A stretch of 64,000 nucleotides of DNA from Candidatus Omnitrophota bacterium (GCA_041649175.1 JBAZNR010000003.1:143449-207448); one strand, 5' to 3'. Counted from the first letter of the stretch, positions 22,968-53,523 are shown. Program-made: numbers and translations. Notes: generated by a model not told the origin, from the sequence alone.

Positions 22968-23470
22968 TCACGGTTAAAAGAATTAAAGCGATGACGAAAA
23001 AGAAAATAAATCATCAAAAATTGGGAATGGTTGATGTAAGCCATAAGCCGATCACAAAAAGGATAGCGATTGCTTCAGCAACCATTGCAATGAGCAAAGT
23101 TACTTTTATGGCTCTTATGAAGAATCGTTCTCCTAAGGGTAATGTTTTGGAAGCCGCAAAAATAGCCGGCATTATGGCGGCGAAGAAAACACCGGACATT
23201 ATTCCTCTGTGCCATCCTTTAGAAATTCAGAAAGTAAATGTGGAATTTGAATTAAGCCGATTAGATTGTTCCGTTTTAGCAAAAGCAACAGTAATTTGTT
23301 TGGGGCGAACCGGTGTTGAAATGGAAGCGTTAACGGCAGCGACGGTAGCTGTTTTAACGATTTACGATATGATGAAGTGGTCTGATAGAACGATGGTTAT
23401 TAAAGATATTATATTATTGCATAAAAACGGCGGAAAGAGCGGATCGTATAACAGAAAGAAGAAACAATAA
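22964..23470 (+). CDS. moaC: Cyclic pyranopterin monophosphate synthase
   Basis: MVDVSHKPITKRIA...GNVLEAAKIAGIMAAKKT...IPLCHPL. ATGA-coupled to moeA. Confidence 0.88.
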   Translation: MITVKRIKAMTKKKINHQKLGMVDVSHKPITKRIAIASATIAMSKVTFMALMKNRSPKGNVLEAAKIAGIMAAKKTPDIIPLCHPLEIQKVNVEFELSRLDCSVLAKATVICLGRTGVEMEALTAATVAVLTIYDMMKWSDRTMVIKDIILLHKNGGKSGSYNRKKKQ

Positions 23471-24492
23471 TGGTTAATATCGGTTTGATCGGTTGTGGTT
23501 ATTGGGGACCCAATCTTCTTCGCAGTTTTAATAGTATTTCTGATTGTCGTGTCCAAAAAGTAGCGGAATTAGATGCTGCCCGTCTTGCGTATATTCAACA
23601 GAATTATCCGACTGTTTCTATAACAAAGAATTACAAGGATTTATTAGGAAGCAAGATCGATGCCGTAGTGATCGCGACGCCGGCGCGCACTCATTTTCAA
23701 TTTGCCAAAGAAGCTATTCAAAATAAAAAGCATGTTTTGATCGAAAAGCCAATGGCCATGACGGTCAAAGAGGCTAAAGAGTTAATGGCACTTGCCCAAA
23801 AAAACCGATGCAAAATCATGGTGGGTCATACCTTTGAATACAATGCGGCAGTAAGAAGTTTAAAAAAATATATTCAAAACGGGACGATTGGCCAGCCGTA
23901 TTATCTTTACGCTCAGCGGCTTAATTTTGGCATCGTACGTAGCGACATTAATGCTCTATGGAACTTAGCGCCGCATGATATTTCGATTCTACTCTATCTT
24001 TTAGAAAAAATGCCTTTAGCAGTCTCGGCCAGGGGCGATGATTTTATCCAAAAGGGAATTGAAGATGTTGTTTTTGTCGTTTTATATTTTCCCGGTGATA
24101 TCATGGCTCATATCCATGTCAGCTGGCTTGACCCGAACAAAACCAGGAAACTAACGGTGGTGGGCAGTGAGAAAATGATCGTTTACGATGATGTCAGTGA
24201 TGCCAAGATCCAGATCTATGATAAGGGAATTAAGAAAAAGAATATCAAAGATTCTCTGGGAGAGTATGATGACTTTGCAAAATTTCAAACGGCAAAAGTT
24301 GCCGGAGATAAAACCATCCCGAAAATTGATTTTATCGAACCTTTGAAAACAGAATGTGCTCATTTTATTGATTGCATTTTGAATGATAAAACTCCTCTTA
24401 CAGATGGATTAAATGGCTTGCGTGTTGTACGCGTTTTAGAAGCGGCGCAAGAATCCATGAAGCGCAACGGACAATTAATCAATGTGAAATAA
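23470..24492 (+). CDS. Gfo/Idh/MocA-family NAD(P)-dependent sugar oxidoreductase
   Basis: VNIGLIGCGYWGPNLLRSF Rossmann start, then EKPMAMTVKEA. First gene of the glycan island. Confidence 0.85.
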   Translation: MVNIGLIGCGYWGPNLLRSFNSISDCRVQKVAELDAARLAYIQQNYPTVSITKNYKDLLGSKIDAVVIATPARTHFQFAKEAIQNKKHVLIEKPMAMTVKEAKELMALAQKNRCKIMVGHTFEYNAAVRSLKKYIQNGTIGQPYYLYAQRLNFGIVRSDINALWNLAPHDISILLYLLEKMPLAVSARGDDFIQKGIEDVVFVVLYFPGDIMAHIHVSWLDPNKTRKLTVVGSEKMIVYDDVSDAKIQIYDKGIKKKNIKDSLGEYDDFAKFQTAKVAGDKTIPKIDFIEPLKTECAHFIDCILNDKTPLTDGLNGLRVVRVLEAAQESMKRNGQLINVK

Positions 24493-24499
24493 ATTTCTT

Positions 24500-25618
24500 A
24501 TGATAAAAATCCCTTTAGTTGATTTAAAAAGACAATATCAAACGATCAAAAAAGAGATTGACCGAGCACTTTTAGATATTGTTGAGCGTTCGTCTTTTAT
24601 ATCAGGTCCGGAAATAAATACTTTTGAACGATCTTTTGCAAAGATGTGCGGCGCGGATTGTGCGGTTGCCGTAAGCTCGGGCACAACGGCTATTTATTTA
24701 GCGTTGATGGCGTTAAAAATTGGAAAGGGTGATGAGGTTATTACGGCGCCGAATACTTTTATCGCGACAACGGAGGCTATTTCGCAAACCGGCGCTAAAG
24801 TTGTTTTTGCTGATGTGGATGACCGAACGCTGAACATTGATCCAGAAAAACTTAAAAAAATGATCACACGGCGGACAAAAGCCGTCATTCCGGTCCATCT
24901 GTACGGACAAATGTGTGATATGGATGCGATCATGAACATCGCAAGGCGCCATCATTTATTAGTCATTGAGGATGCGGCTCAGGCTCATCTAAGCGAGTTT
25001 AAAGGAAAAAGAGCCGGAAGCTTTGGCGCGGCGGGTTGTTTTAGCTTTTTCCCGGGTAAAAATCTGGGAGCTTACGGTGATGCCGGAGCCATTGTTACTA
25101 ATGATAAAAAACTGGCAAAAGAGATGAAAATGCTCTCTGATCATGGGCGCATTGCCAAATATGAGCATCTCAAAGAAGGTTATAATTACCGCATGGATAA
25201 TATTCAGGCGGCTATTTTAAATATCAAATTAAAATATTTACCGCGCTGGACAGAAAAACGCAGAAAAATTGCTCAACGATACAGTGAATTATTTGCAGGA
25301 ACCGATATAAAAACTCCTTACATTGATCTTCGCGCCAAGCCTGTTTATCACCAGTATGTTGTCCGCATAAAAAACAGAGATAAAGTTCAGGGTTATTTAA
25401 TCGAGCAGGGAATATCAACGGGAATTCATTACCCCATTGCGCTTCATTTGCAAAAGGCGTATCGCTATTTGGGCTATAAAAAAGGTGATTTTCCAATTGT
25501 GGAAAAGGCTGCCAGCGAAATCTTGTCTCTTCCTATTTTTCCGGAATTAACCGAGAACGAAATGCAGATCATTGTGCGGGCATTAAAAACAGCCTGTGCG
25601 AAATCGTTCGGAGCATAA
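24500..25618 (+). CDS. DegT/DnrJ/EryC1/StrS-family PLP-dependent sugar aminotransferase
   Basis: SGPEINTFERSFA...AVSSGTTAIYLAL...VIPVHLYGQMCDMD...FSFFPGKNLGAYGDAGAI. Confidence 0.9.
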   Translation: MIKIPLVDLKRQYQTIKKEIDRALLDIVERSSFISGPEINTFERSFAKMCGADCAVAVSSGTTAIYLALMALKIGKGDEVITAPNTFIATTEAISQTGAKVVFADVDDRTLNIDPEKLKKMITRRTKAVIPVHLYGQMCDMDAIMNIARRHHLLVIEDAAQAHLSEFKGKRAGSFGAAGCFSFFPGKNLGAYGDAGAIVTNDKKLAKEMKMLSDHGRIAKYEHLKEGYNYRMDNIQAAILNIKLKYLPRWTEKRRKIAQRYSELFAGTDIKTPYIDLRAKPVYHQYVVRIKNRDKVQGYLIEQGISTGIHYPIALHLQKAYRYLGYKKGDFPIVEKAASEILSLPIFPELTENEMQIIVRALKTACAKSFGA

Positions 25619-25645: not shown

Positions 25646-26590
25646 ATGTACCGAAATAAAAAGATTTCCATTGTGATCCCGGCCTACAATGAAGAAAAGC
25701 TGATCAAGCCTACCTTGGAACATATTCCGCCGTTAATTGATAAGATCTATGTTATTGATGATGCAAGCACGGACGGCATGACGGCCATTGTTAAAGAAAT
25801 AGCCAGGAAAGACTCTCGTGTCGAGCTTATTTCCCATCCCAAAAACGAAGGGCCGGGGCAAGCCATTATTACGGGGTATTTACGGTCGTCGAAAGATGGA
25901 TTTGACATTACAGTTGTGGTTGGTGGGGATTTTCAAATGCCCCTAGAACAAGTTGAGCAATTTTTAGATCCTTTAATTGACGGACAGGCGGATTATGCAA
26001 AGGGAAATAGATTCTTACTCTGGGATATTACACGCGAACAGATGCCGAGAATTAGGATTTTAGGAAATATCATTATTACGGGATTGACGAAAATTGCTTC
26101 CGGCTACTACAAAGTGATGGATGTGGTGGATGGTTATACGGCGATTACAAAAAGAGCCATTGAGACGATCAACTGGGATAATGCTTGGAAAAAATACGGA
26201 TATCCAATGGATTTTCTGATTAGGCTCAATGCTTACGGGTTTCGGGTCAAAGATATTGCCCGGACGCCCATTTATTTAAAAGGCGAAAGGCAGTCGCAGA
26301 TCAAGGGGTTTCGTTATGCGCTTAAGACATCACCGATGCTTATCCGGGGATTTATCTGGAGAATGCTTTTTAAATATGTTTACCGCGATTTTCATCCGCT
26401 TGTTTTTTTCTTTTTTTGCGGGTTAGTGTTTTTGCCTTTGGGGTTATTATTTGGGCTTTATTTAATATATTTATCTTTGGCCGGGATCGGTGTTTCCGGG
26501 CCCAAAGCGATCCTTTGCGCGCTGCTTGTTTTGACGGGACTGCAGTTTGTTCTGTTCGGCATGTGGTTTGATATGGAAGCGAGCAAGTAG
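25646..26590 (+). CDS. Family 2 glycosyltransferase (Dpm1/polyprenyl-phosphate sugar synthase-like) with C-terminal TM helices
   Basis: ISIVIPAYNEE...YVIDDASTDGM...DGDFQMP, then two hydrophobic helices. Confidence 0.85.
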   Translation: MYRNKKISIVIPAYNEEKLIKPTLEHIPPLIDKIYVIDDASTDGMTAIVKEIARKDSRVELISHPKNEGPGQAIITGYLRSSKDGFDITVVVGGDFQMPLEQVEQFLDPLIDGQADYAKGNRFLLWDITREQMPRIRILGNIIITGLTKIASGYYKVMDVVDGYTAITKRAIETINWDNAWKKYGYPMDFLIRLNAYGFRVKDIARTPIYLKGERQSQIKGFRYALKTSPMLIRGFIWRMLFKYVYRDFHPLVFFFFCGLVFLPLGLLFGLYLIYLSLAGIGVSGPKAILCALLVLTGLQFVLFGMWFDMEASK

Positions 26591-26622: not shown

Positions 26623-27753
26623 ATGAATTCTGGTGTTTGCACGCGATGCGTCTTGGATACAACCATTCCCGAAATCCGTTTTGATGAAAACGGTGTTTGT
26701 CAGTATTGCAAAATCCACGATGACCTGGAAAAAGAATATCCGCTCAATGACGATGGAAAACGCAAGCTTGATCGCTGGGTTGAAAAAATAAAAAAAGATG
26801 GGCAGGGGAAACCGTACGACATTATCGTGGGAGTAAGCGGCGGGCGGGACAGTACGTTTGGCCTGTATATGGTTGTTAAGTTAGGACTACGTCCCCTAGC
26901 TGTTCACTTTGACAATGGATGGAATTCGGAGATCGCCGTTACAAATATCAAGCGGGCAACGGAAAAATTAAATGTTGATTTACATACCTTTGTGGTGGAT
27001 TGGGACGAATTTAAGGATCTGCAGATCTCTTTTTTAAAAGCATCAACGTCTGATGCCGAAATTCCCACTGATGTTGCCATTCATGGGATTTTGCACCGCG
27101 TTGCAGCGCAGGAAAATATTAAATACATTCTTTTCGCGCATTCTTTTCGAACGGAAGGGTTTTCACCCATTGGCTGGACGTATATGGACGGGCGGTATAT
27201 CCGCGAAGTTCAAAAGAAATTCGGCACAAAAAAATTAAAAACCTTTCCAAATCTGACCATTTCAAATTTCTTTTATTATCGCCTTATCAAAAAGATCCAG
27301 GTTGTTCCTCTTTTATCATTGATGGAATACCGCCATAAAGAAGCCCAAGAGTTGCTAGAAAAGGAATTAGGCTGGAAATATTACGGCGGGCATCACCATG
27401 AGTCGTATTATACGCATTTTTTTCAGTCATTTTATTTGCCGCGAAAATTTAACATTGATAAACGCAAACTTGAATATTCAGCGCTTATTCGTTCGGGGCA
27501 GATGACCCGCGAAGCCGCACTTACGGATATTACGCAAAACGTCTATCCTTATGATGAAGAGCTTGTGAAATACACCATGAATAAATTGGGATTGAGCAAA
27601 GAGGACTTTGAAAGCATCATGAAAGCTCCCCGAAAAAATTTTCAAGACTACCCGACGTATTTTCCGCTTTTGAAAATTCTCAAATTTCCGATCCTTTGGG
27701 CGACAAAACTCAATATTTTCCCAAAACATCTTTATATGAAATATTTAGGCTGA
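26623..27753 (+). CDS. N-acetyl sugar amidotransferase (WbpG/PseA/WbuX-type PP-loop enzyme)
   Basis: CTRCVLDTTIPEIRFDENGVCQYCKIHD zinc-ribbon start and GVSGGRDSTF PP-loop. Confidence 0.85.
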   Translation: MNSGVCTRCVLDTTIPEIRFDENGVCQYCKIHDDLEKEYPLNDDGKRKLDRWVEKIKKDGQGKPYDIIVGVSGGRDSTFGLYMVVKLGLRPLAVHFDNGWNSEIAVTNIKRATEKLNVDLHTFVVDWDEFKDLQISFLKASTSDAEIPTDVAIHGILHRVAAQENIKYILFAHSFRTEGFSPIGWTYMDGRYIREVQKKFGTKKLKTFPNLTISNFFYYRLIKKIQVVPLLSLMEYRHKEAQELLEKELGWKYYGGHHHESYYTHFFQSFYLPRKFNIDKRKLEYSALIRSGQMTREAALTDITQNVYPYDEELVKYTMNKLGLSKEDFESIMKAPRKNFQDYPTYFPLLKILKFPILWATKLNIFPKHLYMKYLG

Positions 27754-27760
27754 TCATTTC

Positions 27761-28528
27761 ATGCTAAAAATTCGCGTCTTTCCATGTCTTTTGTTGCAAG
27801 AAACACGGTTGGTAAAAACAGTCCAATTTAAGGATCCCACATATATCGGCGATCCGATGAATGCTATTCGAATCTTTAACACTAAAGAAGCTCACGAATT
27901 AATCTTGTTGGATATTTTGGCAACTTCTCTTAATCGTAAACCGGACTTTGAATTGATCGCCCGGGTTTCGGAAGAATGCAATATGCCGTTAACCGCCGGA
28001 GGGGGCGTTCGAGAAATCAGCGATGTTCATGCTATGCTCGATGCCGGAGCGGAAAAAGTTGTGATCAATAGTTTTGCGGTTGAAGATCCAGATTTTATTG
28101 CGCAGGCGTCGGAAAAATTCGGTAGCCAGGCAATTGTTGTCTCAATAGATGCGAAATGTCATTCGGATGGCGCCTATGAGGTTTTTACTCATAACGGGCG
28201 AAAACCGACAAAAATAAGCCCCGTTGATTTTGCCGTTCAAATGGAAAAACAGGGGGCCGGCGAAATCTTTTTAAACTCTATTGATAAAGACGGCACTATG
28301 TCAGGTTATGACATTGCTTTGATCAAAAGCGTTACTCAGGCAGTCAATATTCCCGTTATCGCTTGCGGCGGGGTGGGTAAGCTTGAAGATTTTCGTGATG
28401 CTGTTGAAAATGGCGGAGCTTCAGCGGTTGCCGCCGGAAGCTTTTTTGTTTTTCACGGCCGCCGTCGGGCGGTTTTGATCAATTTTCCAACAAGGCAGGA
28501 GCTAGAAGTAACCTTATCAGGAAGATAG
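27761..28528 (+). CDS. HisF-like imidazole glycerol phosphate synthase cyclase paralog (WbuZ-type)
   Basis: RVFPCLLLQETRLVKTVQFKDPTYIGDPMNAIRIFNTKEAHELILLDI...VIACGGVG. Confidence 0.85.
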   Translation: MLKIRVFPCLLLQETRLVKTVQFKDPTYIGDPMNAIRIFNTKEAHELILLDILATSLNRKPDFELIARVSEECNMPLTAGGGVREISDVHAMLDAGAEKVVINSFAVEDPDFIAQASEKFGSQAIVVSIDAKCHSDGAYEVFTHNGRKPTKISPVDFAVQMEKQGAGEIFLNSIDKDGTMSGYDIALIKSVTQAVNIPVIACGGVGKLEDFRDAVENGGASAVAAGSFFVFHGRRRAVLINFPTRQELEVTLSGR

Positions 28529-28552
28529 GGTTTATTTTTTAAGGAGTCAGCT

Positions 28553-29599
28553 ATTAAGATTGTCATTGATATCAATCATCCGGCGCATGTCCATTTCTTT
28601 AAGAACCTGATCTGGGCTCTTCAAGAAAAAGGGCATCGGGTTTTGATCACGGTTAAAGATAAGGAAATTGCCTGCTATCTTTTGGACGCGTTAAAATTCC
28701 CTTATATCAAATTGGGAAAGCATTCAAAAACGCTCTTAGGAAAGCTTATCAGTATTCCGGCCATGGATTGGCGAATGTACCGGGCGGTTAAGGATTTTAA
28801 GCCGGATCTTTTTTTGGGGCTCGCTTCGGTGCGCGCGGCACATGTAGCGAGTTTTCTTAAAAAGCAATGTATCAACTTTGATGACACGGAAAATGGAGTT
28901 GCCGAATTACGGCTTTATCTGCCGTTTGTCAGCTTCGTGTGCACGCCTTCCTGTTATCAAAAGAACTTAGGCGCGAAACAAATTCGGTATGACGGTTATC
29001 ACGAGTTAGCATATCTACATCCTTCCCGATTTAAACCCGACCCAGCTGTTTTAAATCTACTTGGCGTTAAATCCGACGAGAAATATGTTATCGTCCGCTT
29101 TGTTTCTTGGCAGGCGGTTCATGATATTGGACATAAGGGATTTTCGCTTGCCATGAAACGAAAAGCCGTGAAAGAATTCGCAAAGTACGCGAAAGTTTTT
29201 ATTACATCCGAAGGGCCGCTTCCCAAAGACCTGGAATCATTTCGCTTGCAAATTCCTGCAGAAAAAGTTCACAGCGCATTATATTACGCGACACTTCTTT
29301 TTGGCGAGAGTGCCACGATGGCTTCCGAAAGTGCTGTTTTGGCAACGCCGGCGATCTATTTGGATAATGAAGGCCGCGGATACACAGATGAAGAAGAAAA
29401 AACTTACGGATTGGTTTTTAATTTCAAGGAATCACCAGAAGATCAAGAGCGCTCGGTCCAAAAGGGAATAGAAATTCTAAAGCAAGATTACGCTAGCGTT
29501 AAAGAGGTTTGGCGTAAAAAAACACAAAAATTGCTTCAGGACAAAATTGATGTGACCGCTTGGATAGAAAATTTTATCAATCAAGCTTTGAGGCCATGA
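28553..29599 (+). CDS. DUF354-family protein, predicted to initiate at an ATT codon
   Basis: The track ORF starts at 28643. The in-frame upstream sequence IKIVIDINHPAHVHFFKNLIWALQEKGHRVLITVKD matches the conserved DUF354 N-terminus (MKIWIDI.N.PHVHFF). It begins immediately after the hisF-like stop. AAGGAG lies 6 nt before ATT at 28553, and no ATG/GTG/TTG is in frame. Confidence 0.6.
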   Translation: MKIVIDINHPAHVHFFKNLIWALQEKGHRVLITVKDKEIACYLLDALKFPYIKLGKHSKTLLGKLISIPAMDWRMYRAVKDFKPDLFLGLASVRAAHVASFLKKQCINFDDTENGVAELRLYLPFVSFVCTPSCYQKNLGAKQIRYDGYHELAYLHPSRFKPDPAVLNLLGVKSDEKYVIVRFVSWQAVHDIGHKGFSLAMKRKAVKEFAKYAKVFITSEGPLPKDLESFRLQIPAEKVHSALYYATLLFGESATMASESAVLATPAIYLDNEGRGYTDEEEKTYGLVFNFKESPEDQERSVQKGIEILKQDYASVKEVWRKKTQKLLQDKIDVTAWIENFINQALRP

Positions 29600-29600
29600 T

Positions 29601-31427
29601 ATGTGCGGGATAGCCGGAATTTATTCTAAGCGCCAAGAGATTAGGGAATCGGATATAAAAGCTGTTCAAACGATGAATGACATTCAAAAGCACCGCGGCC
29701 CCGATGACCAAGGATTGTTTTCGGATAAGATATGTGTTCTAGGGCATCGCCGTTTATCCATCATTGACTTATCTAAAGACGGGCATCAGCCGTTCTTTTC
29801 TGATGATGGGCGATATATTCTCATTTTTAACGGAGAGATTTACAATTATATTGAACTTCGCGATGAACTTGTGAAGCTCGGATGTCGTTTTAAAACCAAG
29901 ACAGATACGGAAGTTTTATTAAAAAGCTTTGAACAATTCGGTTCCCGTTGTTTAGAAAAGTTTAACGGGATGTTCGCCTTTGCTATTTACGACAAAAAAG
30001 AAAACTCTCTATTCCTGGCGCGCGACAGGGTTGGGGTTAAGCCGCTCTATTATTGCGTACATAACGGAAAATTATATTTTGCTTCTGAAATTAAGGCGCT
30101 ACGAAGTATTCCGGGCATTCACTTTTCAATGAGCAGGCAAGCGGTTTTTGATTATTTGGTTTTTAACCGGACAGATATTTTTGATGAAACATTTTTAAAT
30201 GAGATCAAGCGTATTCCCAAAGGGCATTATGCAACTTTTCGTGATGAAAAATTGCAATTGATCCAATGGTGGGATCCTGAAAGTTACTTTAACCAAAATA
30301 TTTCTGTTTCTCTCGATGAGGCATCTAAGCACATAAGAGATCTTCTTGTTTCTTCGGTCGATTTTCGATTACGCAGTGATGTGACGGTGGGGTCTTGCCT
30401 TAGCGGAGGGTTGGATTCTTCGATTTTGACGGGAATACTTTTTTCGCATCATGCAATTGAGCAAAATTATTCAACATTTACCGCTTCAATTCCCGGGCAT
30501 AAAATTGATGAGACAAAGTATGTTGATGCTTTAAATCAAAAATATCCTTTTAAAAATTACCGCACTTTTCCGGACGGGCAAAAGGCTTTTAAAGATTTAC
30601 GTGATTTTGTTTATGCGATCGATGAACCATCAACCGATGCGACCTATTATGCGCAATATGAAGTGATGCGACTAGCCAAAGAACACAATGTTACTGTTTT
30701 ATTAGACGGGCAGGGCGGTGATGAGGTTTTTGCGGGCTATCCCTATTTTCTGGGATTTTATTTGTATGGATTGTGGAATAAAAAAAGGATTGGGAAATTT
30801 GCCTACGAATTAGGAAAGAGCATTTTGCGCCGTCAGGAACGCTTGGCTTATGAAACTTTTCTCTTCCAGGTATTGCCGGATGTTGTAAAAAAGAAAATCC
30901 TTATGAGGCAAGCTTCATTCATAAATCCTGATTTCTTTAAGGAACATATCGATTCAAGTCTTATTTATAAGAAATTCTTTGACGCGAGTAGTCTCAATGT
31001 CAGCCTCTTGCGGCATTTCCAATATAAACTTGAACATCTTCTACGGTTGGAAGACCGTAATTCGATGATTTTCTCACTTGAGGCGCGCGTACCTTATCTG
31101 GATTACCGGCTTATTGAATATGTTTTGGGCCTAAGCGAGGATTTAAAAATCAGATCGGGAGAAACAAAGTTTTTACAAAAACAGGCTGTGGGGCGATATA
31201 CGGTTGATGAGATATTGAATAGAAAAGACAAGATAGGATTTGGCGTTCCGACGCAAGAGTGGATGAGTATACCGCAGTGGCGGCAGATGACGGAAGAAAG
31301 CTATGAGCAGCTGCAAGAATCTTTTCCAGAAATCTTCAGAAATAATTCTGTTTTGCCTGAAGAAAATTCTTATCGCTGGAAGATTAGTCAGTTAAATACC
31401 TGGAAAGGCATTGTCTCGATAAAATGA
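29601..31427 (+). CDS. asnB: Asparagine synthase (glutamine-hydrolysing)
   Basis: MCGIAGIY N-terminal nucleophile and the SGGLDSS PP-loop. Confidence 0.9.
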   Translation: MCGIAGIYSKRQEIRESDIKAVQTMNDIQKHRGPDDQGLFSDKICVLGHRRLSIIDLSKDGHQPFFSDDGRYILIFNGEIYNYIELRDELVKLGCRFKTKTDTEVLLKSFEQFGSRCLEKFNGMFAFAIYDKKENSLFLARDRVGVKPLYYCVHNGKLYFASEIKALRSIPGIHFSMSRQAVFDYLVFNRTDIFDETFLNEIKRIPKGHYATFRDEKLQLIQWWDPESYFNQNISVSLDEASKHIRDLLVSSVDFRLRSDVTVGSCLSGGLDSSILTGILFSHHAIEQNYSTFTASIPGHKIDETKYVDALNQKYPFKNYRTFPDGQKAFKDLRDFVYAIDEPSTDATYYAQYEVMRLAKEHNVTVLLDGQGGDEVFAGYPYFLGFYLYGLWNKKRIGKFAYELGKSILRRQERLAYETFLFQVLPDVVKKKILMRQASFINPDFFKEHIDSSLIYKKFFDASSLNVSLLRHFQYKLEHLLRLEDRNSMIFSLEARVPYLDYRLIEYVLGLSEDLKIRSGETKFLQKQAVGRYTVDEILNRKDKIGFGVPTQEWMSIPQWRQMTEESYEQLQESFPEIFRNNSVLPEENSYRWKISQLNTWKGIVSIK

Positions 31428-32626
31428 TCAAAACCGCAAACTATGAACCGGTGTTGTTGGGCGCGCTCAAAAGCGCGCAAGCCAATGATTATAAAGGCTA
31501 TGATAAGTTTGATGCGCTTAATAGCCCGTTTTTGCAGCAGCTTTCGTTCGGCAATCCATGGCTGCGTTTTATTTTGATCCAATTGGTCAAAGAATCTCCT
31601 TTTAATATTCGTCCGTTTTTAGGCGTTCAAACATTCCGTAATCCTAAGGGCATAGCGCTTTTTGCGCGCGCGTATCTGTTCCTTTACCGGAAAACAAAAA
31701 ACGAGGAATATTTAAAAGAAGCAAAGATTCTTTTGGATTGGCTGTTAGAAAATCCTTCGCCGGGATATAAAAATTTATGCTGGGGCTATCAATTTGCCTG
31801 GCAGGATATCCCGCCATTTTTTCAAAATAAGGGCGAACCGAATTGTGTGGTAACCGTTTTTACCGGGGAAGCCCTGATCCATGCATTTCGTGAAACACGC
31901 GACAGAAAATATCTGGATGCGGCATGCTCGGTTGCCAGGTTTTTAACGGAAGATTTGCCCGTTATCTATGAAAAAGGCGAAGAAAGAGCTATTTCTTATA
32001 TTGCGCAACCGATCAATTTGATCGTTATCAATATTCAGGTTTTGTCGGCGGCTTTCTTGACGAAGATCTTTTGGCACAAACAGGATCAAAAAATCCTGGA
32101 TATCGCCAGAAAACAATTGAATTTTGCGTATCATCGTCGAACATCGTATAATGCCTGGTATTATACCGAGCCCAAAGGAAAGTCGTTTATCCGCCATGAT
32201 AATTATCATACGGGTGGGATCTTGGACGGATTTTTAGAATATTTTGAAGAAACAAAAGATGAACGGTACATGGATGTTTACTGGCAAGGCTTAGACTATT
32301 ATCAAAAAAACCTTTTTGAGGATAACGGAGCGCCACGCTGGATGAACGACCAGAAATATCCGCTTGATATTCATGGCGCGGCGCAAGGAATTATAAGCTT
32401 TGCTAAAGCCGGACGATATAAAAAAGAATATATAGTGCAGGCTGCTCGTATTGGCGAGTGGACGATGAATAATCTTTATCGGTCTCGAGCTCAAGATTTT
32501 ATTTACCGTCAAGGCAGGTTCTTTAAGTGTGATTTTTCGCTGATGCGCTGGTGTAATGCCTGGATGGCCAGGGCCTTAGCGGAATATGTTTTAGCCGATT
32601 CTGATCCTGTGAAAAAAGGAATTTAA
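31424..32626 (+). CDS. Hypothetical protein, possibly an (alpha/alpha)6-toroid fold
   Basis: Clean 400-aa ORF, ATGA-coupled to asnB. Rich in W/Y helical hairpins. Family not recognised. Confidence 0.45.
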   Translation: MIKTANYEPVLLGALKSAQANDYKGYDKFDALNSPFLQQLSFGNPWLRFILIQLVKESPFNIRPFLGVQTFRNPKGIALFARAYLFLYRKTKNEEYLKEAKILLDWLLENPSPGYKNLCWGYQFAWQDIPPFFQNKGEPNCVVTVFTGEALIHAFRETRDRKYLDAACSVARFLTEDLPVIYEKGEERAISYIAQPINLIVINIQVLSAAFLTKIFWHKQDQKILDIARKQLNFAYHRRTSYNAWYYTEPKGKSFIRHDNYHTGGILDGFLEYFEETKDERYMDVYWQGLDYYQKNLFEDNGAPRWMNDQKYPLDIHGAAQGIISFAKAGRYKKEYIVQAARIGEWTMNNLYRSRAQDFIYRQGRFFKCDFSLMRWCNAWMARALAEYVLADSDPVKKGI

Positions 32627-32628
32627 TT

Positions 32629-35506: not shown

Positions 35507-35528
35507 TCATCAAGAAAATCTTAACATC

Positions 35529-46559: not shown

Positions 46560-46583
46560 ATTAGCTGGGTTTCGGCACGGCTT

Positions 46584-47480
46584 TTGATAGGGTTGTGTAT
46601 TTTTGTCACGATCTTTGACCTGTTTTGCTTTAATGCCCGTTTTGACAATGTGGTCGCACCGACACCTCTCAAGGAAGCGTATTACAAAATACCTTTTCCA
46701 TACCAAGACCTGGATGTGAAATTACGAAGCAGTATCGATATTGTTAATTATCGCTGTGACGCGATCCATACCGGCGGGATGCTTTCCAACAAAAATCTTA
46801 TTTTTGGCGTTCCAAGCTACAGCGGAATTATCGGCTATATGCCTAAAAGATTCTCGGATCTGATCAATAATTTTGGCTATCCAAAAGGAACTGTGCTTAT
46901 TTATCCCAGCGATGTTGCGCAGAGTGAACGTTTCCTTGATCTGTCGGCCGCCAAATATACGTTTAAAGACCTGGCATCCGCCCAAGTCCGCCCCAGCGCC
47001 TTATCCCGACTTATGCTGTTTTACAATTATTCGATTATTCCTGATGACCGCCGGACACTTGAAATATTAAAAGATGAAAAATTTAATCCACAAGCAGAAA
47101 TTTTGCTGTCGCAACCTCTTCAGGAAAATTTTACAGCAAGTCCGGGTTTGCCAGGGAAGGCCGTTTTTATTAGTGCGGCAACTTCTGATGCGGTTGCCGC
47201 GAATGTCGAGACTCCTACGCCGGCTTTGCTATTGTTTTCTGAATCTTACTCAAACGGCTGGAAGGCGTATGTAGATGATAGGCCTGCTCCTGTCTACCGT
47301 GCGAATTTTAATTTTTTAGCTTGTCCCATTCCCTCAGGCGAACACAAAGTCATTTTTAGATTTGAACCGAAAAGCTTTTTTGTTTCCGCTTGGATCAGTT
47401 TGGCAGGGTTGGTGATGTTTTTTGCCGCATCCATTTATTTGATCTCGCGCAAAAATAAAAAAGAGAAAATTCTCTCCTAA
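46584..47480 (+). CDS. YfhO-like C-terminal module (TM helix, periplasmic domain, terminal TM helix), same frame as 44016..46559
   Basis: SYSNGWKAYVDDRPAPVYRANFNFLACPIPSGEHKVIFRF plus a final TM helix matches the YfhO C-terminal signature. Also seen in the intact paralog at 40521..42689. Confidence 0.55.
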   Translation: MIGLCIFVTIFDLFCFNARFDNVVAPTPLKEAYYKIPFPYQDLDVKLRSSIDIVNYRCDAIHTGGMLSNKNLIFGVPSYSGIIGYMPKRFSDLINNFGYPKGTVLIYPSDVAQSERFLDLSAAKYTFKDLASAQVRPSALSRLMLFYNYSIIPDDRRTLEILKDEKFNPQAEILLSQPLQENFTASPGLPGKAVFISAATSDAVAANVETPTPALLLFSESYSNGWKAYVDDRPAPVYRANFNFLACPIPSGEHKVIFRFEPKSFFVSAWISLAGLVMFFAASIYLISRKNKKEKILS

Positions 47481-48216: not shown

Positions 48217-49167
48217 TCAAGAAGTTTTATTGAAGTGGTGCAAGATGTAGTTTTTTTCGTAGGAAGTCAAAAACTGGTGAACAGGAAAGTAGAATCCGCT
48301 TTGTCCATAGTATTCCGTCGCTTCAACGCCTGCCTTAATTAAGTTTTGTTTTCTAATAGAACCTCTGAAATTCTTTGTTGCCTTCATTAAGAAAACTCCC
48401 GGAATAATTTTCTCGCTTAACGGAAAATAGGGAACAATGCCTTGCTTTTTTAATTTCTCGGCAAAAAAATTCCAATTCGATCGGCGAATTTCATTCCAGC
48501 CGTAGCAATAAAGCAAAGAATTAATAAGCGTTGTTTTGATCAAAGCTTGGTCGTGAGCTGAAACTTCTTTGACAGCGCCAAGAGGTTTTTTGGAAGCCAA
48601 GATCCCGCCGAAGGGAATTGGGTAATATTTTGGGAGGCTATAAATGGCATAATCGCCGAATGTTCCCACGGATTCTCCCTCGAGCCTTGTTCCGATGGAA
48701 TAAGCCCCGTCTTCAATAATAGGTAAACCTTCTTGACGATAAGGCTCGATAGTTTCTTGCGGGCAGGGAAAACCAAATTCATGAATGGCTAAAACAGCGC
48801 GGGTTTTTAAGCTCAGTTTCCTTGACCACTGACAGACCGATTCAATTGTTTTTGTAACGCAAGAACTGATGTAGGGCCCCGGTGTTGTTTTGACAATGAG
48901 AACTTCATCAGCAGGTTTAAGCCGAAGATGTTTTAAAGAAAAATAAATAGCCTGACGGCCGCTATTTAAAAGCCGGATATCGCGGGCATTGTCGAGCCAG
49001 AATTCCGGCTCTATGATCGCAGAACGGTTTTCGTGTCCTTGTTGGCCGGTAAGTTTATCCCACTCGATGGCGCTAAAAGGCGAAATGCGGATGTGAGCTG
49101 TCATGTGCGCCATAAGCTCGAAGGAATTAAGCATGGATCGATCGATCGATTTTCTTGTCGTTTTCAT
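48217..49167 (-). CDS. DegT-like PLP-dependent aminotransferase-fold protein (short form)
   Basis: IIEDGAYSIG...FGDYAIYSLPKYYPIPFGGIL resembles the DegT family PLP-lysine region. At 316 aa it is shorter than typical. Confidence 0.5.
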   Translation of the reverse strand: MKTTRKSIDRSMLNSFELMAHMTAHIRISPFSAIEWDKLTGQQGHENRSAIIEPEFWLDNARDIRLLNSGRQAIYFSLKHLRLKPADEVLIVKTTPGPYISSCVTKTIESVCQWSRKLSLKTRAVLAIHEFGFPCPQETIEPYRQEGLPIIEDGAYSIGTRLEGESVGTFGDYAIYSLPKYYPIPFGGILASKKPLGAVKEVSAHDQALIKTTLINSLLYCYGWNEIRRSNWNFFAEKLKKQGIVPYFPLSEKIIPGVFLMKATKNFRGSIRKQNLIKAGVEATEYYGQSGFYFPVHQFLTSYEKNYILHHFNKTS

Positions 49168-49168
49168 T

Positions 49169-49891
49169 TTACGTTTTTTCTAAGATAACATCATAACGGG
49201 AAATGTCGGTTAATTTCCCCGGAATATTTTGCGATAGAATATGGCAGCAATAACCTTTTTTCTGTCCGTATTTCTTAAAAAATGACGGCGGAAATGTCAG
49301 TTTTTTTAAATTGTGGTTTAAAAAAGAAGGCCACCATGATTTGCTTGACGGATTCTTCTTCAGTTCTTTTTGAAGTTTTTGTTTTAAAAGTGATTCAGGC
49401 AAGAGGACATCTCCAATGAAAACACGCCCTTTAGGCTTAATAGTACGCATAAATTGATTAAGAACTTTTTCTGCTTCTTTTTGGCCCGATAAATAATGAA
49501 AAACGCTGTAACATAAGATTTGGTCAAAAGCGTTCGCCGCAAAGGGAAGTGACGCGGCGTTACAAGCAAGAAAAATTCCTCGCGGATTTAGTTTGCGGGC
49601 GTCGAAGAGCATTGCAGGGGCAATGTCGGTGCCGATAACTTTTCGTAAGCGCTTTTGAAAAACTTTTGAAAAAAGTCCGGCCCCTGCGCCGACATCCAAG
49701 AGAACAGAATTTCTTGAGGGCTTCAGTTTCTTCCAAACATCCTCATGGATCGCTTTCATAACTCTTTTTGAAAGCGGTCTTCCTTGTTCATAATAAGCCA
49801 TCTTCATGCGCGGGTCTTTGTAGTGTTGCGCGCAACGGTTGAACCATTCGCTCCAGGAAGACGCTTTAGATCTTTTAGATGATATTTTCAT
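49169..49891 (-). CDS. Class I SAM-dependent methyltransferase
   Basis: LLDVGAGAGLFS...GTDIAPAML...FDQILCYSVFHYL...IKPKGRVFIGDV. Confidence 0.75.
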   Translation of the reverse strand: MKISSKRSKASSWSEWFNRCAQHYKDPRMKMAYYEQGRPLSKRVMKAIHEDVWKKLKPSRNSVLLDVGAGAGLFSKVFQKRLRKVIGTDIAPAMLFDARKLNPRGIFLACNAASLPFAANAFDQILCYSVFHYLSGQKEAEKVLNQFMRTIKPKGRVFIGDVLLPESLLKQKLQKELKKNPSSKSWWPSFLNHNLKKLTFPPSFFKKYGQKKGYCCHILSQNIPGKLTDISRYDVILEKT

Positions 49892-49912
49892 TGGTGAACG
49901 TTTATAAACATA

Positions 49913-50674
49913 TTATCGAAGGCGGGCATTGATAAAGATTTCATTGGCAAGTTCCGGATATTTTCTTCCTAGAATAAAGAGACCTTCCATGACAGGGGCA
50001 GTGAGGACTTTTTTGATGGAGTCCATTTGGCTATTGCTGAAAGGCTTTAAAAGGCATCCGCCCGATCCGGCAATGGCAAACCCTTGGCTAATGACAAGAT
50101 TTGTCAAAGAGCGAAGATCAAATACGTGGTGTTGCATAAGTTGTTTGTTGCGCCGGCTAAATGCCTTGACATCTTTGATGAGCCCCATAGCTTTAGCCAG
50201 GCGCCGGTGCAAAGAATTTCCATTGGAGACATTGATGTGGATCGTTCCTTTCCTGCTGAGAAGAGATCGGGCGGCTCTGAGAAGTTCGTCGGGATTTGGA
50301 ACTTCGTGCAAAAGCCCGGTGCAAACAATAAAATCGATGGGGCCGTGAGTTATTTCGCGAATATCTTGGGCGGCATCTTCAAGGAAATTCTGGATGACAA
50401 AAAGAGGAATTTTCTTTTGAGCAGAACGCTTGGCAACTTGAGCAAATTTTGCCGATGGTTCCACAATGATCCATTGCTTTATAGACAGACGGGCTTTGAG
50501 TGCTTTTTTGTAGAGCAGATCGGCACCGCAGCCGACTTCAACGACAATGACCGGCTTTTTCTGTTGCAGGGTTTCTAAGGCAATTCTTTGGCGGCTGGCG
50601 ACGGCGTTTTTTTCAAATCCGTAGTCGGCAAGATAAATTCCGGGGTAAAGTTTGATTCGTTTTTGCTTGTCCAT
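49913..50674 (-). CDS. Class I SAM-dependent methyltransferase
   Basis: VVEVGCGADLL...WIIVEPSAKF...IDFIVCTGLLHEV...LSRKGTIHINV. Confidence 0.7.
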   Translation of the reverse strand: MDKQKRIKLYPGIYLADYGFEKNAVASRQRIALETLQQKKPVIVVEVGCGADLLYKKALKARLSIKQWIIVEPSAKFAQVAKRSAQKKIPLFVIQNFLEDAAQDIREITHGPIDFIVCTGLLHEVPNPDELLRAARSLLSRKGTIHINVSNGNSLHRRLAKAMGLIKDVKAFSRRNKQLMQHHVFDLRSLTNLVISQGFAIAGSGGCLLKPFSNSQMDSIKKVLTAPVMEGLFILGRKYPELANEIFINARLR

Positions 50675-50878
50675 GCTCGATTTTCTAGAAATTATTCTAA
50701 TAATGTTTTGACGACTTTCTAAAAATAACAGGTGATACTATAGCATAATTTTTACCTGTTCGTCTAATAGTAATCACGTAGTTTTGCTGCGAAGGCGGAA
50801 GAAAAGAGTTTTTCCTTGCGTCAAATTTTTGATGACTGTAGAATAACACGATATATTCACATTTCTTAAAGGTCAATA

Positions 50879-52492
50879 ATGGCAAAGCAATTTCCAACGC
50901 AAAAATATCTTCTATCGGCTCCGGTCATTTTTTCTTTACTTATTCTTGGGCTAGGGCTTGTCCTCCGTTTCGCAAATATCAATAATGACAACTTTTTTCT
51001 GTATGATGAGGGGTATTATCTTAATTACAACCGGCCTGTCCTTGAGTTGATCGACGGGCATTTTCCGGTGAAAATGCCCGACATGATCCAAGCGGTCTAT
51101 CTTTCTTTGCGCGCGGCGTTAGCGACGGGAAAACCATTATGGTTCTTTATCGTTGACGCGCGCGTTTTCTTTGGAGGCGTGCATCAATGGTTTTTTCCTC
51201 ATCTTGTTTCGGCGGTCTTTGGCACTTTGACTTTGGGGCTTGTGTTTTTATTTGCCAGAAAGCTTTTCAACTCCACAACGGCAGGGCTCTTGAGTTTAAT
51301 GATCTTAAACGTTTTGCCAAGCCATGTTTTTTATTCACGCTTAGCGTTGCAAGAGGGTTTATGCGCTTTTCTTTTCTTGGCAGGTTTTTATTTTTATCTT
51401 TTTCCCGCCCGGTTTGGCGCTAAGACTTTTCTATCATCTTTTCTTTTAGTGTTGGCGTATTTCTCAAATTATCGCCTTGTCATCCTTCCGGGTTTGGTCT
51501 TGTTCGCCGAATTTTATATAAGCCTTTCCTCGGGTCAAAAGCCTAATTTCAGGAAGTATTTTTGGCATACTTTAATTTTTATCTTCCTTGTGCTGATGAT
51601 CGGAAGCATTGATAAGGGAAGATACATAACGGTCGTTTTCGCCTGGATGTTCCATCAGGCAGATCTGGCGCAGTCTCAGCGTCATTTTTTGGATCTATTT
51701 TCCTATCCTTATTATATTTTCCGCCTGGAAGGAATTGTATTTGCGACTTTGTTTTTCGCGAACGGATATTACCTGATGAAGCGGCAATGGCAAAGGGCTT
51801 TTTGTTTTTCCCTCGCTTGTTTTTATATGCTCATCTTTTCTCTGACCGCCGAAAAAGGGGCGAGGTATTTATGTGTTATGCTCCCCTTTATGGCCATGGC
51901 GGTTGCGGGATTTCTGGAACAATTATTTTCGAAAGATAATTTAAAGATTAACCGCAAGTTTGTTGTCATTATCACTATTATTCTTTTTGCCGGCTTGATC
52001 GTGCGCTCAATTGATGTGGCACAATTTCGTTCGGATTATAAGAATTCTGTCAAATACATTCGCGCCGTGAGTCCTCAATTTAAGATCATCACGACTCAGC
52101 CTTGGATCCAGAAACTTTATGTAAGCCAAGATGACGTGGCGGAAATGCCAAAAAATTACGAAGCCTTGCTTGGCGCTTACAAAAAAGGGTATCGGTATCT
52201 GATCATTTGCCCGCAGGCGTTTATTTCCTGGACGGACAATAAAGAGAAATTTGATCCCCATTTGCTTCCGTATTTAAAATTCATTACGACATTTGTTGAG
52301 CCGGTTAAAACTTTTTCGCATTTTAACAATCGACTTTTGGAACGGTTTGTTTTTGAGCATAACGAAAATCTGAAAACGTCAGTCCAATTCTTATCATCAG
52401 GAAAGAAAGATTTAGGCGCGCTGCGAGTTTACGATCTAAAGACATGCATCAACGCAGTTGAGAACGTTTATCACCCGAAAAAAGGGAAGTAA
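50879..52492 (+). CDS. ArnT/PMT-like (GT39/GT83-type) GT-C glycosyltransferase
   Basis: N-terminal TM, then FFLYDEGYYLNY (DE-containing first periplasmic loop as in PMT/ArnT enzymes). About 11 TM helices and a C-terminal soluble domain. Confidence 0.6.
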   Translation: MAKQFPTQKYLLSAPVIFSLLILGLGLVLRFANINNDNFFLYDEGYYLNYNRPVLELIDGHFPVKMPDMIQAVYLSLRAALATGKPLWFFIVDARVFFGGVHQWFFPHLVSAVFGTLTLGLVFLFARKLFNSTTAGLLSLMILNVLPSHVFYSRLALQEGLCAFLFLAGFYFYLFPARFGAKTFLSSFLLVLAYFSNYRLVILPGLVLFAEFYISLSSGQKPNFRKYFWHTLIFIFLVLMIGSIDKGRYITVVFAWMFHQADLAQSQRHFLDLFSYPYYIFRLEGIVFATLFFANGYYLMKRQWQRAFCFSLACFYMLIFSLTAEKGARYLCVMLPFMAMAVAGFLEQLFSKDNLKINRKFVVIITIILFAGLIVRSIDVAQFRSDYKNSVKYIRAVSPQFKIITTQPWIQKLYVSQDDVAEMPKNYEALLGAYKKGYRYLIICPQAFISWTDNKEKFDPHLLPYLKFITTFVEPVKTFSHFNNRLLERFVFEHNENLKTSVQFLSSGKKDLGALRVYDLKTCINAVENVYHPKKGK

Positions 52493-53523
52493 TGATAAAA
52501 ACAATACCGCTAACAAAAGAAAATATTAAGACGATCGCGCTCCCGGGATTAGAGCGGAATTTGTTTTCTTCCGCCGCGTGGCTGTCTGTGCTTTGCCAGA
52601 CCTATAAGCTTAGTTTGTTCGCAAAATATATTGAAGAAAATGATCAAATCAAAAGCTATATCATCTATTCAATTGTTGACAATTTTCTAGAGCAGAAGAT
52701 CTGCATTTGCTCTTACTGTGATTATTTTGATTGTCATGTTCAAACACCCGAACATTGGCAGATGTTCTTTGATTCTTTGAGAAAAGAATATCCGCGCTAT
52801 CGCATCGCGATCCGAAATCTGCGCGATCAGCTCGCGCGAGAAAATCCTAATTTTGCTTTGCTCAGCAAAGAGCGATTTCACATTTTGGATATTAATGATG
52901 ATTTAGATTCTATCTGGAAGAAAACCCACGATTCGTTTCGGTCGGCGGTGAAACAAGCACAAAAAAACGGGATTGAAGTTAAGCGCGGCGCAAGAGCTGA
53001 TCTGGACAAATTCTACAAGCTTCATTTGAGGCTAAGAAAAAGCAAATACCGTCTTTTTCCTCAGCCCTTTAGGTTTTTCGATAAGATCTGGCGCGAATAT
53101 ATGGAAAGCGGCAATGGTTTTCTGTTGGGCGCTTACAATCGAGATGGGAAATTTGTCGGAGGAAATGTTTTTCTTCGCTGCGGAGATACGCTGTATTATA
53201 AATTCAATACCTCAGATTTGAATTTTGTAAAACTGCGGGTGAACAATCTTCTTTTGTGGGAAGGGATCAAACTAGCCAAGGAACTTAACCTAAAATTTTT
53301 AGATCTAGGCTCTAGCGGATATGAGCAACACGGACTCATCATGTTTAAAGATCATGTTGGCGCAAAATGTTTGGATATCTGTCATCTCGGATTTAATCCA
53401 CCCGATTATAAATTCAGCCAAAAAAGGATCTTGAAAGTATTTACCCATACTTTGACCGCTCCATGGGTTCCGGATTTTATTACGCGGGCAGGGAGTAGTA
53501 TTATTTATCCGTTTTTGGCGTAG
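52492..53523 (+). CDS. FemAB-family/GNAT-fold aminoacyl- or acyl-transferase-like protein
   Basis: Size and the LLWEGIKLAKELNLKFLDLGSS region resemble FemAB/acetyltransf_6 proteins. Weak recognition. Confidence 0.45.
   Translation: MIKTIPLTKENIKTIALPGLERNLFSSAAWLSVLCQTYKLSLFAKYIEENDQIKSYIIYSIVDNFLEQKICICSYCDYFDCHVQTPEHWQMFFDSLRKEYPRYRIAIRNLRDQLARENPNFALLSKERFHILDINDDLDSIWKKTHDSFRSAVKQAQKNGIEVKRGARADLDKFYKLHLRLRKSKYRLFPQPFRFFDKIWREYMESGNGFLLGAYNRDGKFVGGNVFLRCGDTLYYKFNTSDLNFVKLRVNNLLLWEGIKLAKELNLKFLDLGSSGYEQHGLIMFKDHVGAKCLDICHLGFNPPDYKFSQKRILKVFTHTLTAPWVPDFITRAGSSIIYPFLA

Follow-up and report, generated by a model that had tools for sequence, protein, structure and literature searches.

Gene content of a Candidatus Omnitrophota locus points to a probable extracytoplasmic glycosylation system with its own acetamidino-sugar tailoring pathway

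What would a bacterium build with a densely packed, 30-kb block of genes for sugar-modifying enzymes and glycosyltransferases (GTs), a surface polymer or a decoration of its envelope? This question is raised by positions 23470-53523 of a 64,000-nucleotide stretch from a Candidatus Omnitrophota bacterium (GCA_041649175.1, JBAZNR010000003.1:143449-207448), which was analysed as a whole and is called the window in the following. The window forms part of a 659-kb metagenome contig (ENA ERZ27247363). The host is taken to belong to the Omnitrophota of the Planctomycetes-Verrucomicrobia-Chlamydiae (PVC) group and is probably diderm. To our knowledge, the Omnitrophota are uncultivated and nothing experimental is known on their envelope. 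We consider it probable (roughly 0.6) that the locus encodes a multi-component extracytoplasmic glycosylation system, i.e. one for envelope decoration, which has its own sugar-tailoring pathway and does not assemble a polymer. Its layout resembles that of the Arn, Gtr, CsbB/YfhO and Pgf systems (streptococcal PgfS/PgfM1 is a further multi-component transmembrane glycosylation system), and by this analogy it would be an unusual variant of a kind of system that is already known.

The island comprises 26 open reading frames (ORFs) with overlapping or near-zero spacing, 23 of them on the plus strand, or 25 genes if a long YfhO gene that is split by a stop codon is taken as one (Table 1). Families were assigned with Pfam and NCBIfam for the window ORFs of at least 120 amino acids (aa), the ORFs 31-399 and 62151-62513 having been left unscanned. 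Among the scanned ORFs of the 64 kb we found no initiating phosphoglycosyltransferase (PGT), no Wzx, Wzy, Wzz, Wza or Wzm/Wzt and no ABC exporter. This agrees with the first-pass annotation of the window, a list made from the DNA alone, which had described a glycan-tailoring cluster with delivery genes and an acetamidino module that is probably not a classical Wzx/Wzy O-antigen cluster. Its interpretation was broadly right, save for an insertion claim discussed below. The consecutive, packed block of about 30 kb is real and lies where it had been placed, but it holds fewer than the "about 30" genes given. We recovered the three sugar oxidoreductases with one bi-domain fusion (GFO/MocA matches at 23470, 33377 and 37365 in Pfam) and both DegT proteins, one strong (24500, E 6e-124) and one short and divergent on the minus strand (48217, E 1e-10). 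The same applies for the WbpG-type amidotransferase and the HisF paralogue, both above the NCBIfam cutoffs, and for the DUF354, AsnB, radical S-adenosylmethionine (SAM), nucleotidyltransferase, GT4, flippase-like, TPR, hexapeptide acetyltransferase, FemAB-like and PMT-like proteins. Two GT2 enzymes were detected (25646, 47488) instead of the three claimed. Five methyltransferases in the window is a correct number if PrmA (19592) and a weak match at 15870 are included; however, only three class-I enzymes (32629, 49169, 49913) and not four are situated inside the island.

The genes that would deliver a sugar carry the argument for envelope decoration. Established examples of a GT2 that works with a flippase and a GT-C enzyme are CsbB/YfhO, GtlA/GtlB and systems of Gram-negative bacteria (PMC5836110, PMC8035078, PMC11127046). 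Like ArnC/ArnEF/ArnT, GtrA/B/C, CsbB/GtcA/YfhO and GtlA/GtlB, the island encodes GT2 enzymes that resemble polyprenyl-phosphate sugar synthases, a membrane protein that may flip a lipid-linked sugar, and YfhO-like and PMT/ArnT-like GT-C enzymes. GT2a ends in two transmembrane (TM) helices as GtrB, ArnC and CsbB do. It is the most conserved island gene in the relatives (77-78% identity), and its best NCBIfam models, AglJ, PpgS, PgfS, dolichyl-phosphate (Dol-P)-hexose transferase and ArnC, all match below the cutoff. GT2b, 71% identical in L014 (loci used for comparison are designated by L and a number), shows below-cutoff similarity to Dol-P-hexose transferase, AglJ and PpgS, too. Furthermore, an aminotransferase is dedicated to the locus, comparable to ArnB in the Arn system, and neither a polymerase nor an exporter was found in either case.

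The island differs from these systems in its candidate flippase, which belongs to LPG_synthase_TM (PF03706) and not to GtrA/GtcA or ArnE/F. No small flippase of the latter types was detected with Pfam or NCBIfam, the LPG_synthase_TM protein apparently standing in the place of this role; members of its family are also encoded in L008 and L011-L014 near a GT2, in L011-L014 near a GT-C as well. Unlike the Arn, Gtr and CsbB systems, the locus combines three GT-C enzymes with two GT2 enzymes, and it devotes a much larger set of enzymes to the sugar (an acetamidino module as well as AsnB, a radical SAM enzyme, three methyltransferases and three GFO oxidoreductases).

The GT-C enzymes are of different kinds. 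The 722-aa protein, Yfh722, gave no Pfam match even at E<=1; about a third of its 63 homologues, the named ones of which are from Omnitrophota, carry the YfhO domain PF09586. An AlphaFold2 model from 44 sequences (query plus 43 homologues) had a mean predicted local distance difference test value (pLDDT) of 91.4, and 25 of the Foldseek PDB ranks 1-26 were GT-C enzymes (AglB, STT3, EmbB, PglB, ArnT, AftD, DPY19, ALG9). In addition, Yfh722 shares 33% identity with the long YfhO protein over its C-terminal 81 aa. The gene downstream encodes a TM-anchored TPR protein. Such genes adjoin YfhO-like genes, before or after them, in L002, L014 and L015, and the same gene order was seen in L017 by tblastn; in L014 and L015 the TPR gene follows Yfh722, and one homologue (P0015) is a YfhO-TPR fusion. 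The TPR protein is probably a partner of the GT-C enzyme. The PMT-like protein has about nine TM helices plus a soluble C-terminal part and is 48% identical in L014. The FemAB-like protein encoded next to it (58% identical in L014) shows a weak match to the PEP-CTERM-associated FemAB family TIGR03019.

The second YfhO-like gene is a single gene of about 1150 codons cut by a TAA, so the first-pass count of two YfhO-like genes holds with this provision and with the GT-C fold of Yfh722 resting on the model. The ORFs 44016-46559 and 46584-47480 lie in the same frame with one TAA between them. Among its 19 homologues, most are encoded as one protein with 1118-1174 aa. PF09586 occurs in nearly all of them; in the gene of the island it matches only the C-terminal 70 aa or so (41.8 bits for the 298-aa ORF and 38.2 bits for the read-through vs 28.5). 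Because the TAA aligns with a Lys/Arg column of the intact homologues, it appears to be a one-base nonsense change and would fit a single AAA-to-TAA exchange. In the protein collection, entries of both NCBI and JGI origin show the same truncated product of 847 aa. A conserved two-gene split was rejected: the two parts in L014 (784 and 369 aa) result from a scaffold gap with a run of 10 N at 16056-16065. A reassignment of the stop codon was discarded, too, as other genes end normally and the TAA stands on the Lys/Arg column. The long YfhO proteins have an additional N-terminal domain of some 175 aa between the first TM helix and the GT-C core (44133-44660; residues 40-215 in the 847-aa ORF). 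This domain is extracytoplasmic and by eye beta-rich and lectin- or jelly-roll-like.

Which sugar would be delivered? The tailoring genes point to a sugar of the 2-acetamido-3-acetamidino type, which is probably also amidated and methylated. UDP-2,3-diacetamido-2,3-dideoxy sugars are made by the WbpA/B/E/D/I, the WlbA/B/C and the archaeal/GnnA-GnnB UDP-GlcNAc3N routes. The route we infer for the island would lead from UDP-N-acetylglucosamine (UDP-GlcNAc) via the 3-keto, 3-amino and 3-acetamido compounds to the acetamidino derivative, and it is supported by the family matches of WbuX, HisF2, the hexapeptide transferase, DegT1 and GFO1. The best NCBIfam model of GFO1 is the archaeal UDP-GlcNAc 3-dehydrogenase NF040723 (195 bits, below the cutoff of 450). 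GFO1 is nearer to this model than to WlbA, whose structure 3Q2K was matched at only 4e-10 besides the PDB matches 3C1A and 7BVJ; its orthologues in L011, L014 and L017 are 65-68% identical. DegT1 is most similar to 7B0D, QdtB (3FRK, 4e-105) and WbpE (3NU7, 2.5e-88). The hexapeptide transferase, 66% identical in L014, best matches PDB entry 3MQG, deposited as "Lipopolysaccharides biosynthesis acetyltransferase" and presumably WlbB. As in the WbpA-I/WlbA-D pathway to UDP-ManNAc3NAcA, candidates for a 3-dehydrogenase, a C3 aminotransferase and a 3-N-acetyltransferase are therefore present, all at the level of similarity.

Acetamidino groups are introduced by WbpG/HisH2/HisF2 in P. aeruginosa O5, WbuXYZ in E. 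coli O145 and AglXYZ in Methanococcus. Like the components of these systems, WbuX and HisF2 of the island are adjacent and in canonical order; both score above the curated cutoffs, and HisF2 has kept the gate residues R5, E46, K99 and E167 as well as D130. By these features both appear to be bona fide members. Unlike in these systems, a HisH, i.e. a class-I glutaminase, was found neither in the island nor among the scanned window ORFs, as had been noticed in the first-pass annotation. There is no remnant of it between WbuX and HisF2, since the gap measures only 7 bp. HisH was not found in the three orthologous Omnitrophota loci L011, L014 and L017 either, and for this reason its absence is best read as a trait of the lineage and not as an artefact of the window edge.

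In a metagenome scan for WbuX, 80 loci were obtained, 44 of which with at least 2.7 kb downstream were used for counting. The order WbuX-HisH-HisF2-DUF354 occurred in 30 of these, making DUF354 the usual downstream partner of the module; two had WbuX-HisH-HisF2, six WbuX-DUF354 without HisH or HisF2, and five nothing downstream. HisH thereby lies between WbuX and HisF2 in 32 of 44 loci, and WbuX-HisF2 alone was seen in a single one, the Omnitrophota-type L017. The HisF2 proteins without HisH differ from the others by one lineage-specific substitution, F49L. At the position of the catalytic Asp11 of HisF, a Leu is found in all 46 HisF2 from other loci and in the four HisH-less ones. A HisH hidden in the locus or replaced by an altered HisF2 was ruled out by the 7-bp gap and by F49L being the only lineage-specific change. 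As the gate residues and D130 are kept and only one residue is substituted, the HisH-less HisF2 proteins probably still receive ammonia, either via a HisH encoded elsewhere or as free NH3.

Taken together, the following sequence of events can be proposed. In the cytoplasm, judged by family similarity, GFO1 would oxidise UDP-GlcNAc at C3, DegT1 would transaminate the product and the WlbB-like hexapeptide transferase would N-acetylate the new amine; WbuX with HisF2 could then turn the N-acetyl into the acetamidino group with ammonia from one of the two sources mentioned. In this genome, the block from DUF354 via AsnB, the (alpha/alpha)6 protein and the methyltransferase MT1 to the bi-domain oxidoreductase may epimerise, oxidise, amidate and methylate the sugar, and the NTP-transferase, the radical SAM enzyme, GFO3 and GT4 may supply or attach a second sugar. 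Judged by architecture, undecaprenyl phosphate would receive single sugars from GT2a and GT2b, and the LPG_synthase_TM protein would act as flippase for the lipid-linked product. At the outer face, Yfh722 with its TPR partner, the PMT/ArnT-like protein and, if functional, the long YfhO would transfer the sugar to an acceptor in the envelope. For this acceptor, lipid A/lipopolysaccharide (LPS) and an envelope protein come first into consideration, and the TPR partner is compatible with either.

Table 1. Predicted genes of the island in window coordinates (bits vs cutoff where two values are given)
Position	Strand	Product	Evidence
23470..24492	+	GFO1, GFO/MocA oxidoreductase, probable UDP-GlcNAc 3-dehydrogenase	Pfam GFO_IDH_MocA E 4e-27
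24500..25618	+	DegT1, sugar aminotransferase, C3-type by similarity	Pfam E 6e-124
25646..26590	+	GT2a, polyprenyl-phosphate sugar synthase-like	Pfam GT2; two C-terminal TM helices, 252-270 and 288-306
26623..27753	+	WbuX/WbpG-type N-acetyl sugar amidotransferase (PP-loop)	TIGR03573, 268.9 bits vs 203.2, full-length
27761..28528	+	AglZ/HisF2 acetamidino-modification protein	NF038364 352 vs 310; TIGR03572 304 vs 300
28553..29599	+	DUF354 protein, probable ATT start	Pfam DUF354; listed ORF from TTG 28643
29601..31427	+	AsnB-type glutamine-dependent amidotransferase	TIGR01536, 464 bits vs 267
31424..32626	+	400-aa (alpha/alpha)6-barrel protein	weak Pfam: GH88, C5-epim_C, GH127
32629..33390	+	MT1, class-I SAM methyltransferase	Pfam Methyltransf_25 E 7e-21
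33377..35506	+	Bi-domain oxidoreductase, MDR/ADH_zinc_N + GFO/MocA, 709 aa	Pfam and PDB
35529..36305	+	Sugar-1-phosphate nucleotidylyltransferase	Pfam NTP_transferase E 2e-17
36305..37459	+	Radical SAM enzyme, CxxxCxxC at 49-56	Pfam Radical_SAM E 5e-13
37446..38366	+	GFO3, third GFO/MocA oxidoreductase	Pfam GFO_IDH_MocA E 2e-14; start per public assembly, longest ORF from 37365
38379..39575	+	GT4 (GT-B) glycosyltransferase	Pfam Glycos_transf_1 E 1e-27
39562..40521	+	LPG_synthase_TM flippase-like membrane protein	PF03706, 83 bits vs 33.4; ~8 TM helices
40521..42689	+	Yfh722, 722-aa GT-C fold glycosyltransferase, distantly YfhO-like	predicted fold
42637..43377	+	Membrane-anchored TPR protein	Pfam TPR_1 E 3e-15; one TM helix 31-49
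43405..44019	+	Hexa, WlbB/WbpD-like hexapeptide N-acetyltransferase	best PDB 3MQG, E 7.7e-62
44016..47480	+	Long YfhO-family GT-C gene, ~1153 codons	in-frame TAA 46557-46559 gives 847 + 298 aa
47488..48201	+	GT2b, short soluble GT2, Dol-P/polyprenyl-P hexose synthase type	Pfam GT2
48217..49167	-	DegT2, short divergent DegT-like pyridoxal phosphate protein	Pfam DegT, residues 118-177 only, E 1e-10
49169..49891	-	MT2, class-I SAM methyltransferase	Pfam Methyltransf_11 E 6e-19
49913..50674	-	MT3, class-I SAM methyltransferase	Pfam Methyltransf_23 E 5e-13
50879..52492	+	PMT/ArnT-like GT-C glycosyltransferase	PF02366, 27.8 bits vs 22.7, N-terminal region only
52492..53523	+	FemAB-like / Acetyltransf_6 (GNAT) protein	PF13480, 54 bits vs 22

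Not all of these genes are equally constant. The segment from DUF354 to GT4 (28553-39575) is present in the window and partly in L011, a locus from an Omnitrophota metagenome-assembled genome (MAG). As it is missing from L014 and L017, we regard it as the truly variable part of the island, judged from these loci. In L011, DUF354-AsnB-(alpha/alpha)6-MT1 is found at the same place, and GT2a is immediately followed by a gene for a PMT-like GT-C. The order DUF354-AsnB-(alpha/alpha)6-MT1, in part followed by the bi-domain oxidoreductase, recurs in L011-L013 and in the loci of relatives of the latter enzyme. Usually this cassette is accompanied by a GT2 and LPG_synthase_TM, often also by a hexapeptide transferase, a PMT-type GT-C or a radical SAM enzyme. 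L008, L011, L012 and L013 each combine GT2 and LPG_synthase_TM with DUF354-AsnB-(alpha/alpha)6-MT, and L011-L013 also have a PMT-type GT-C and a hexapeptide transferase. The carriers are bacteria of at least six phyla or classes, plus Altiarchaeota.

For the first gene of the cassette, homology to the DUF354 proteins of L011 and L012 reaches up to position 28553 (IKIVIDINHPAHV...), where no ATG, GTG or TTG is found. Instead, an ATT is located there 6 nt after a perfect AAGGAG (window 28541-28560). The publicly called start at TTG 28643 loses the conserved HPAH motif. The gene has either a non-canonical ATT start or a mutated start codon. A literature search for DUF354 yielded no functional study in the library covered. 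The third protein, with 400 aa, was not on the first-pass list of the island's genes. Its AlphaFold2 model (pLDDT 90.7) was closest in Foldseek to cellobiose, glucose and GlcNAc 2-epimerases (AGE family) and to GH76 with a TM-score of about 0.6, a generic likeness at fold level only. The family is very well conserved: among 840 database matches the best 120 are 57-66% identical, and 31-65% identity was found in MAGs of five other phyla and classes. MT1 belongs to the cassette in L007-L013 (41-70% identity), and relatives of the bi-domain oxidoreductase with 45-66% identity occur in MAGs of Altiarchaeota, Phycisphaerae, Alteromonadaceae, Zixibacteria and Lentisphaerae.

Further downstream in the variable segment, the nucleotidylyltransferase has glucose-1-phosphate cytidylyltransferase as best NCBIfam model (below cutoff), and its gene was not seen in the related loci compared. 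The radical SAM enzyme shows weak full-length matches to SPASM-type maturases in NCBIfam; other radical SAM genes are present in L011 (B12-binding) and L013 (SPASM). No useful PDB match was obtained by sequence for DUF354, the radical SAM enzyme or the 400-aa protein. From its gene order and distribution, the cassette seems to be an uncharacterised unit crossing phylum borders. As to its chemistry, one may only guess, if reasonably, at an AsnB-catalysed amidation of a carboxylate, at methylation, and at oxidation or epimerisation. A more far-reaching proposal is that the cassette represents an undescribed, horizontally spread pathway which builds a new amidated, methylated amino sugar and exports it onto the envelope, with DUF354 as the missing fourth component of WbuX-HisH-HisF2 and with an Omnitrophota version working without a dedicated glutaminase. 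We put this forward only tentatively, with the odds rather against it.

An orthologous Omnitrophota island is found in the locus L014 (JGI 3300021183), where it occupies the same site next to PrmA, RF1 and MoaC. Sixteen genes are retained there in the order of the window with identities of 30-78% (GFO1-DegT1-GT2a-WbuX-HisF2-LPGTM-Yfh722-TPR-Hexa-YfhO-GT2b-PMT-FemAB, followed on the minus strand by DegT2 and MT2). This comparison bears on the minus-strand module of the window (48217-50674), for which a later insertion had been suggested in the first-pass annotation. DegT2 (54% identity) and MT2 (43% identity) of L014 are likewise located on the minus strand, but they follow FemAB, whereas in the window they precede PMT. 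Since the module occurs in L014 at another position, it appears to be an old, repositioned member of the island. A foreign insertion was rejected, since the module is present in L014, its GC content is ordinary and flanking repeats are lacking. Only one gene of the module deviates in codon usage: MT3 (49913-50674, GC 0.461) is the most deviant of the 54 window genes with a codon-usage distance of 1.58 vs a mean of 0.83 (sd 0.19, about 3.9 sd). Two long antisense ORFs overlap MT3. Inspection of DegT2 showed an SLPK...GG motif that could hold the catalytic Lys.

These three genes are the only ones of the 54 window genes on the minus strand, and the GC skew stays positive over them; all ORFs accepted as genes from 396 to 48201 are on the plus strand. 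The GC content is flat at about 0.41 throughout the island. At its borders we saw no tRNA, repeats or mobility genes: moaC overlaps the island start upstream by 1 nt, and genes for an alpha-glucan phosphorylase and thyA follow downstream. Scans for promoters and terminators gave chance level only.

Could the island nevertheless be a conventional O-antigen, capsule or exopolysaccharide (EPS) repeat-unit cluster, whose initiating transferase, flippase, polymerase and exporter are encoded elsewhere and whose GT-C enzymes are ligase- or polymerase-like? Acetamidino, diamino and amidated sugars are typical constituents of such polymers. Cluster B of Sphingomonas e.g. combines WbuX, HisF2, HisH, an aminotransferase, an acetyltransferase and an AsnB-type amidotransferase with Wzy and Wzc (PMC11340318), and the GT4 and the NTP-transferase of the island would fit, too. 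However, the genes for polymer assembly and export missing from the 64-kb scans are likewise missing within 10 kb on each side of L008 and L011-L014, the island is flanked by housekeeping genes, and the GT4 is the only Leloir GT besides the two polyprenyl-phosphate-type GT2 enzymes, too few for a repeat unit. This makes a polymer cluster unlikely. We regard a membrane glycolipid or modified lipid head group as end product as quite improbable, too; here, the GT2 would glycosylate a lipid and, after tailoring in the cytoplasm, the LPG_synthase_TM protein would flip it, comparable to MprF and lysyl-phosphatidylglycerol. PF03706 is indeed described as the flippase domain of MprF, and the minimal set of L008 consists of LPG_synthase_TM, a GT2 and tailoring enzymes, none of the scanned ORFs being recognisable as a GT-C, but two ORFs upstream of the L008 cassette without Pfam match could be GT-C enzymes. 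In the window and in L011-L014, GT-C enzymes stand beside the GT2, and such enzymes serve the transfer from polyprenyl-phosphate donors to a further acceptor.

Alternatively, the island might be a mosaic in which three or more modules, independent of one another, have accumulated at a variable surface locus: the acetamidino module, the DUF354-AsnB cassette together with a GT2 and a flippase belonging to it, and the YfhO/TPR and PMT/FemAB genes. The absence of the block 28553-39575 from L014 and L017 speaks for this, as do the cassette occurring without WbuX or HisF2 in L008, L012 and L013 and the isolated occurrence of Yfh722-TPR (L015) and of the long YfhO (L002, L004). Moreover, hypervariable loci of Omnitrophota have been reported to carry genes for cell-surface biosynthesis as cargo (bioRxiv 10.64898/2026.06.07.730766). 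Such independence is nonetheless doubtful in our opinion: the operon-like spacing with overlapping stops and starts continues across the module borders, the composition is uniform, and the order of the 16 genes has persisted in L014 although their identity is no higher than 30-78%, which speaks for selection acting on the whole set.

Several points weigh against the extracytoplasmic glycosylation system we prefer. The assignments at substrate level (GFO1, both GT2 enzymes) are all under the curated equivalog cutoffs. The assignment of PF03706 as flippase is made by analogy. The long YfhO carries a premature stop, and its homologues stand in non-glycan contexts in other genomes, so the GT-C enzymes here need not share one pathway. 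GT4 and the NTP-transferase would not fit a model of pure single-sugar decoration. Furthermore, neither a UDP-GlcNAc 6-dehydrogenase (UDPG_MGDP_dh; WbpA) nor a 2-epimerase of the Epimerase_2 family (WbpI) was found among the scanned window ORFs, which would place the locus outside the WbpA-I uronic-acid pathway. In this, and in having its acetyltransferase 18 kb away from its partners, the island differs from the Wbp and Wlb pathways. A substitute might be found in DUF354, if this is a remote GT-B or epimerase-like protein (PMC4520260).

The locus offers a concrete, testable model of envelope decoration in Omnitrophota, in which a cationic acetamidino sugar would be delivered in the manner of Arn, Gtr and YfhO. 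Two leads reach beyond this genome: DUF354 as a regular partner of the acetamidino module, and the (alpha/alpha)6 protein as the mark of a sugar-tailoring cassette. Both DUF354 and the cassette are open to study in culturable carriers, e.g. Alteromonadaceae or Desulfobacterota.

Around the island, several genes are related to glycogen: a ParA/MinD-type ATPase fused to an AMPK/CBM48 glycogen-binding domain (8474-9634), a GH57+DUF3536 enzyme (16660-19182) and the alpha-glucan phosphorylase mentioned above (53664-55691). Adjoining genes at 12438-15827 encode two membrane-protein paralogues with 571 and 554 aa, which share 41% identity; the methyltransferase-like ORF at 15870 follows. Each consists of 10-12 TM helices and a soluble C-terminal domain, and they matched nothing in Pfam or NCBIfam apart from one faint PMT_2 hit (E 0.22). 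An ORF similar to the 571-aa protein lies directly upstream of the long-YfhO homologue in L004, and the two paralogues may be additional GT-C-like enzymes.

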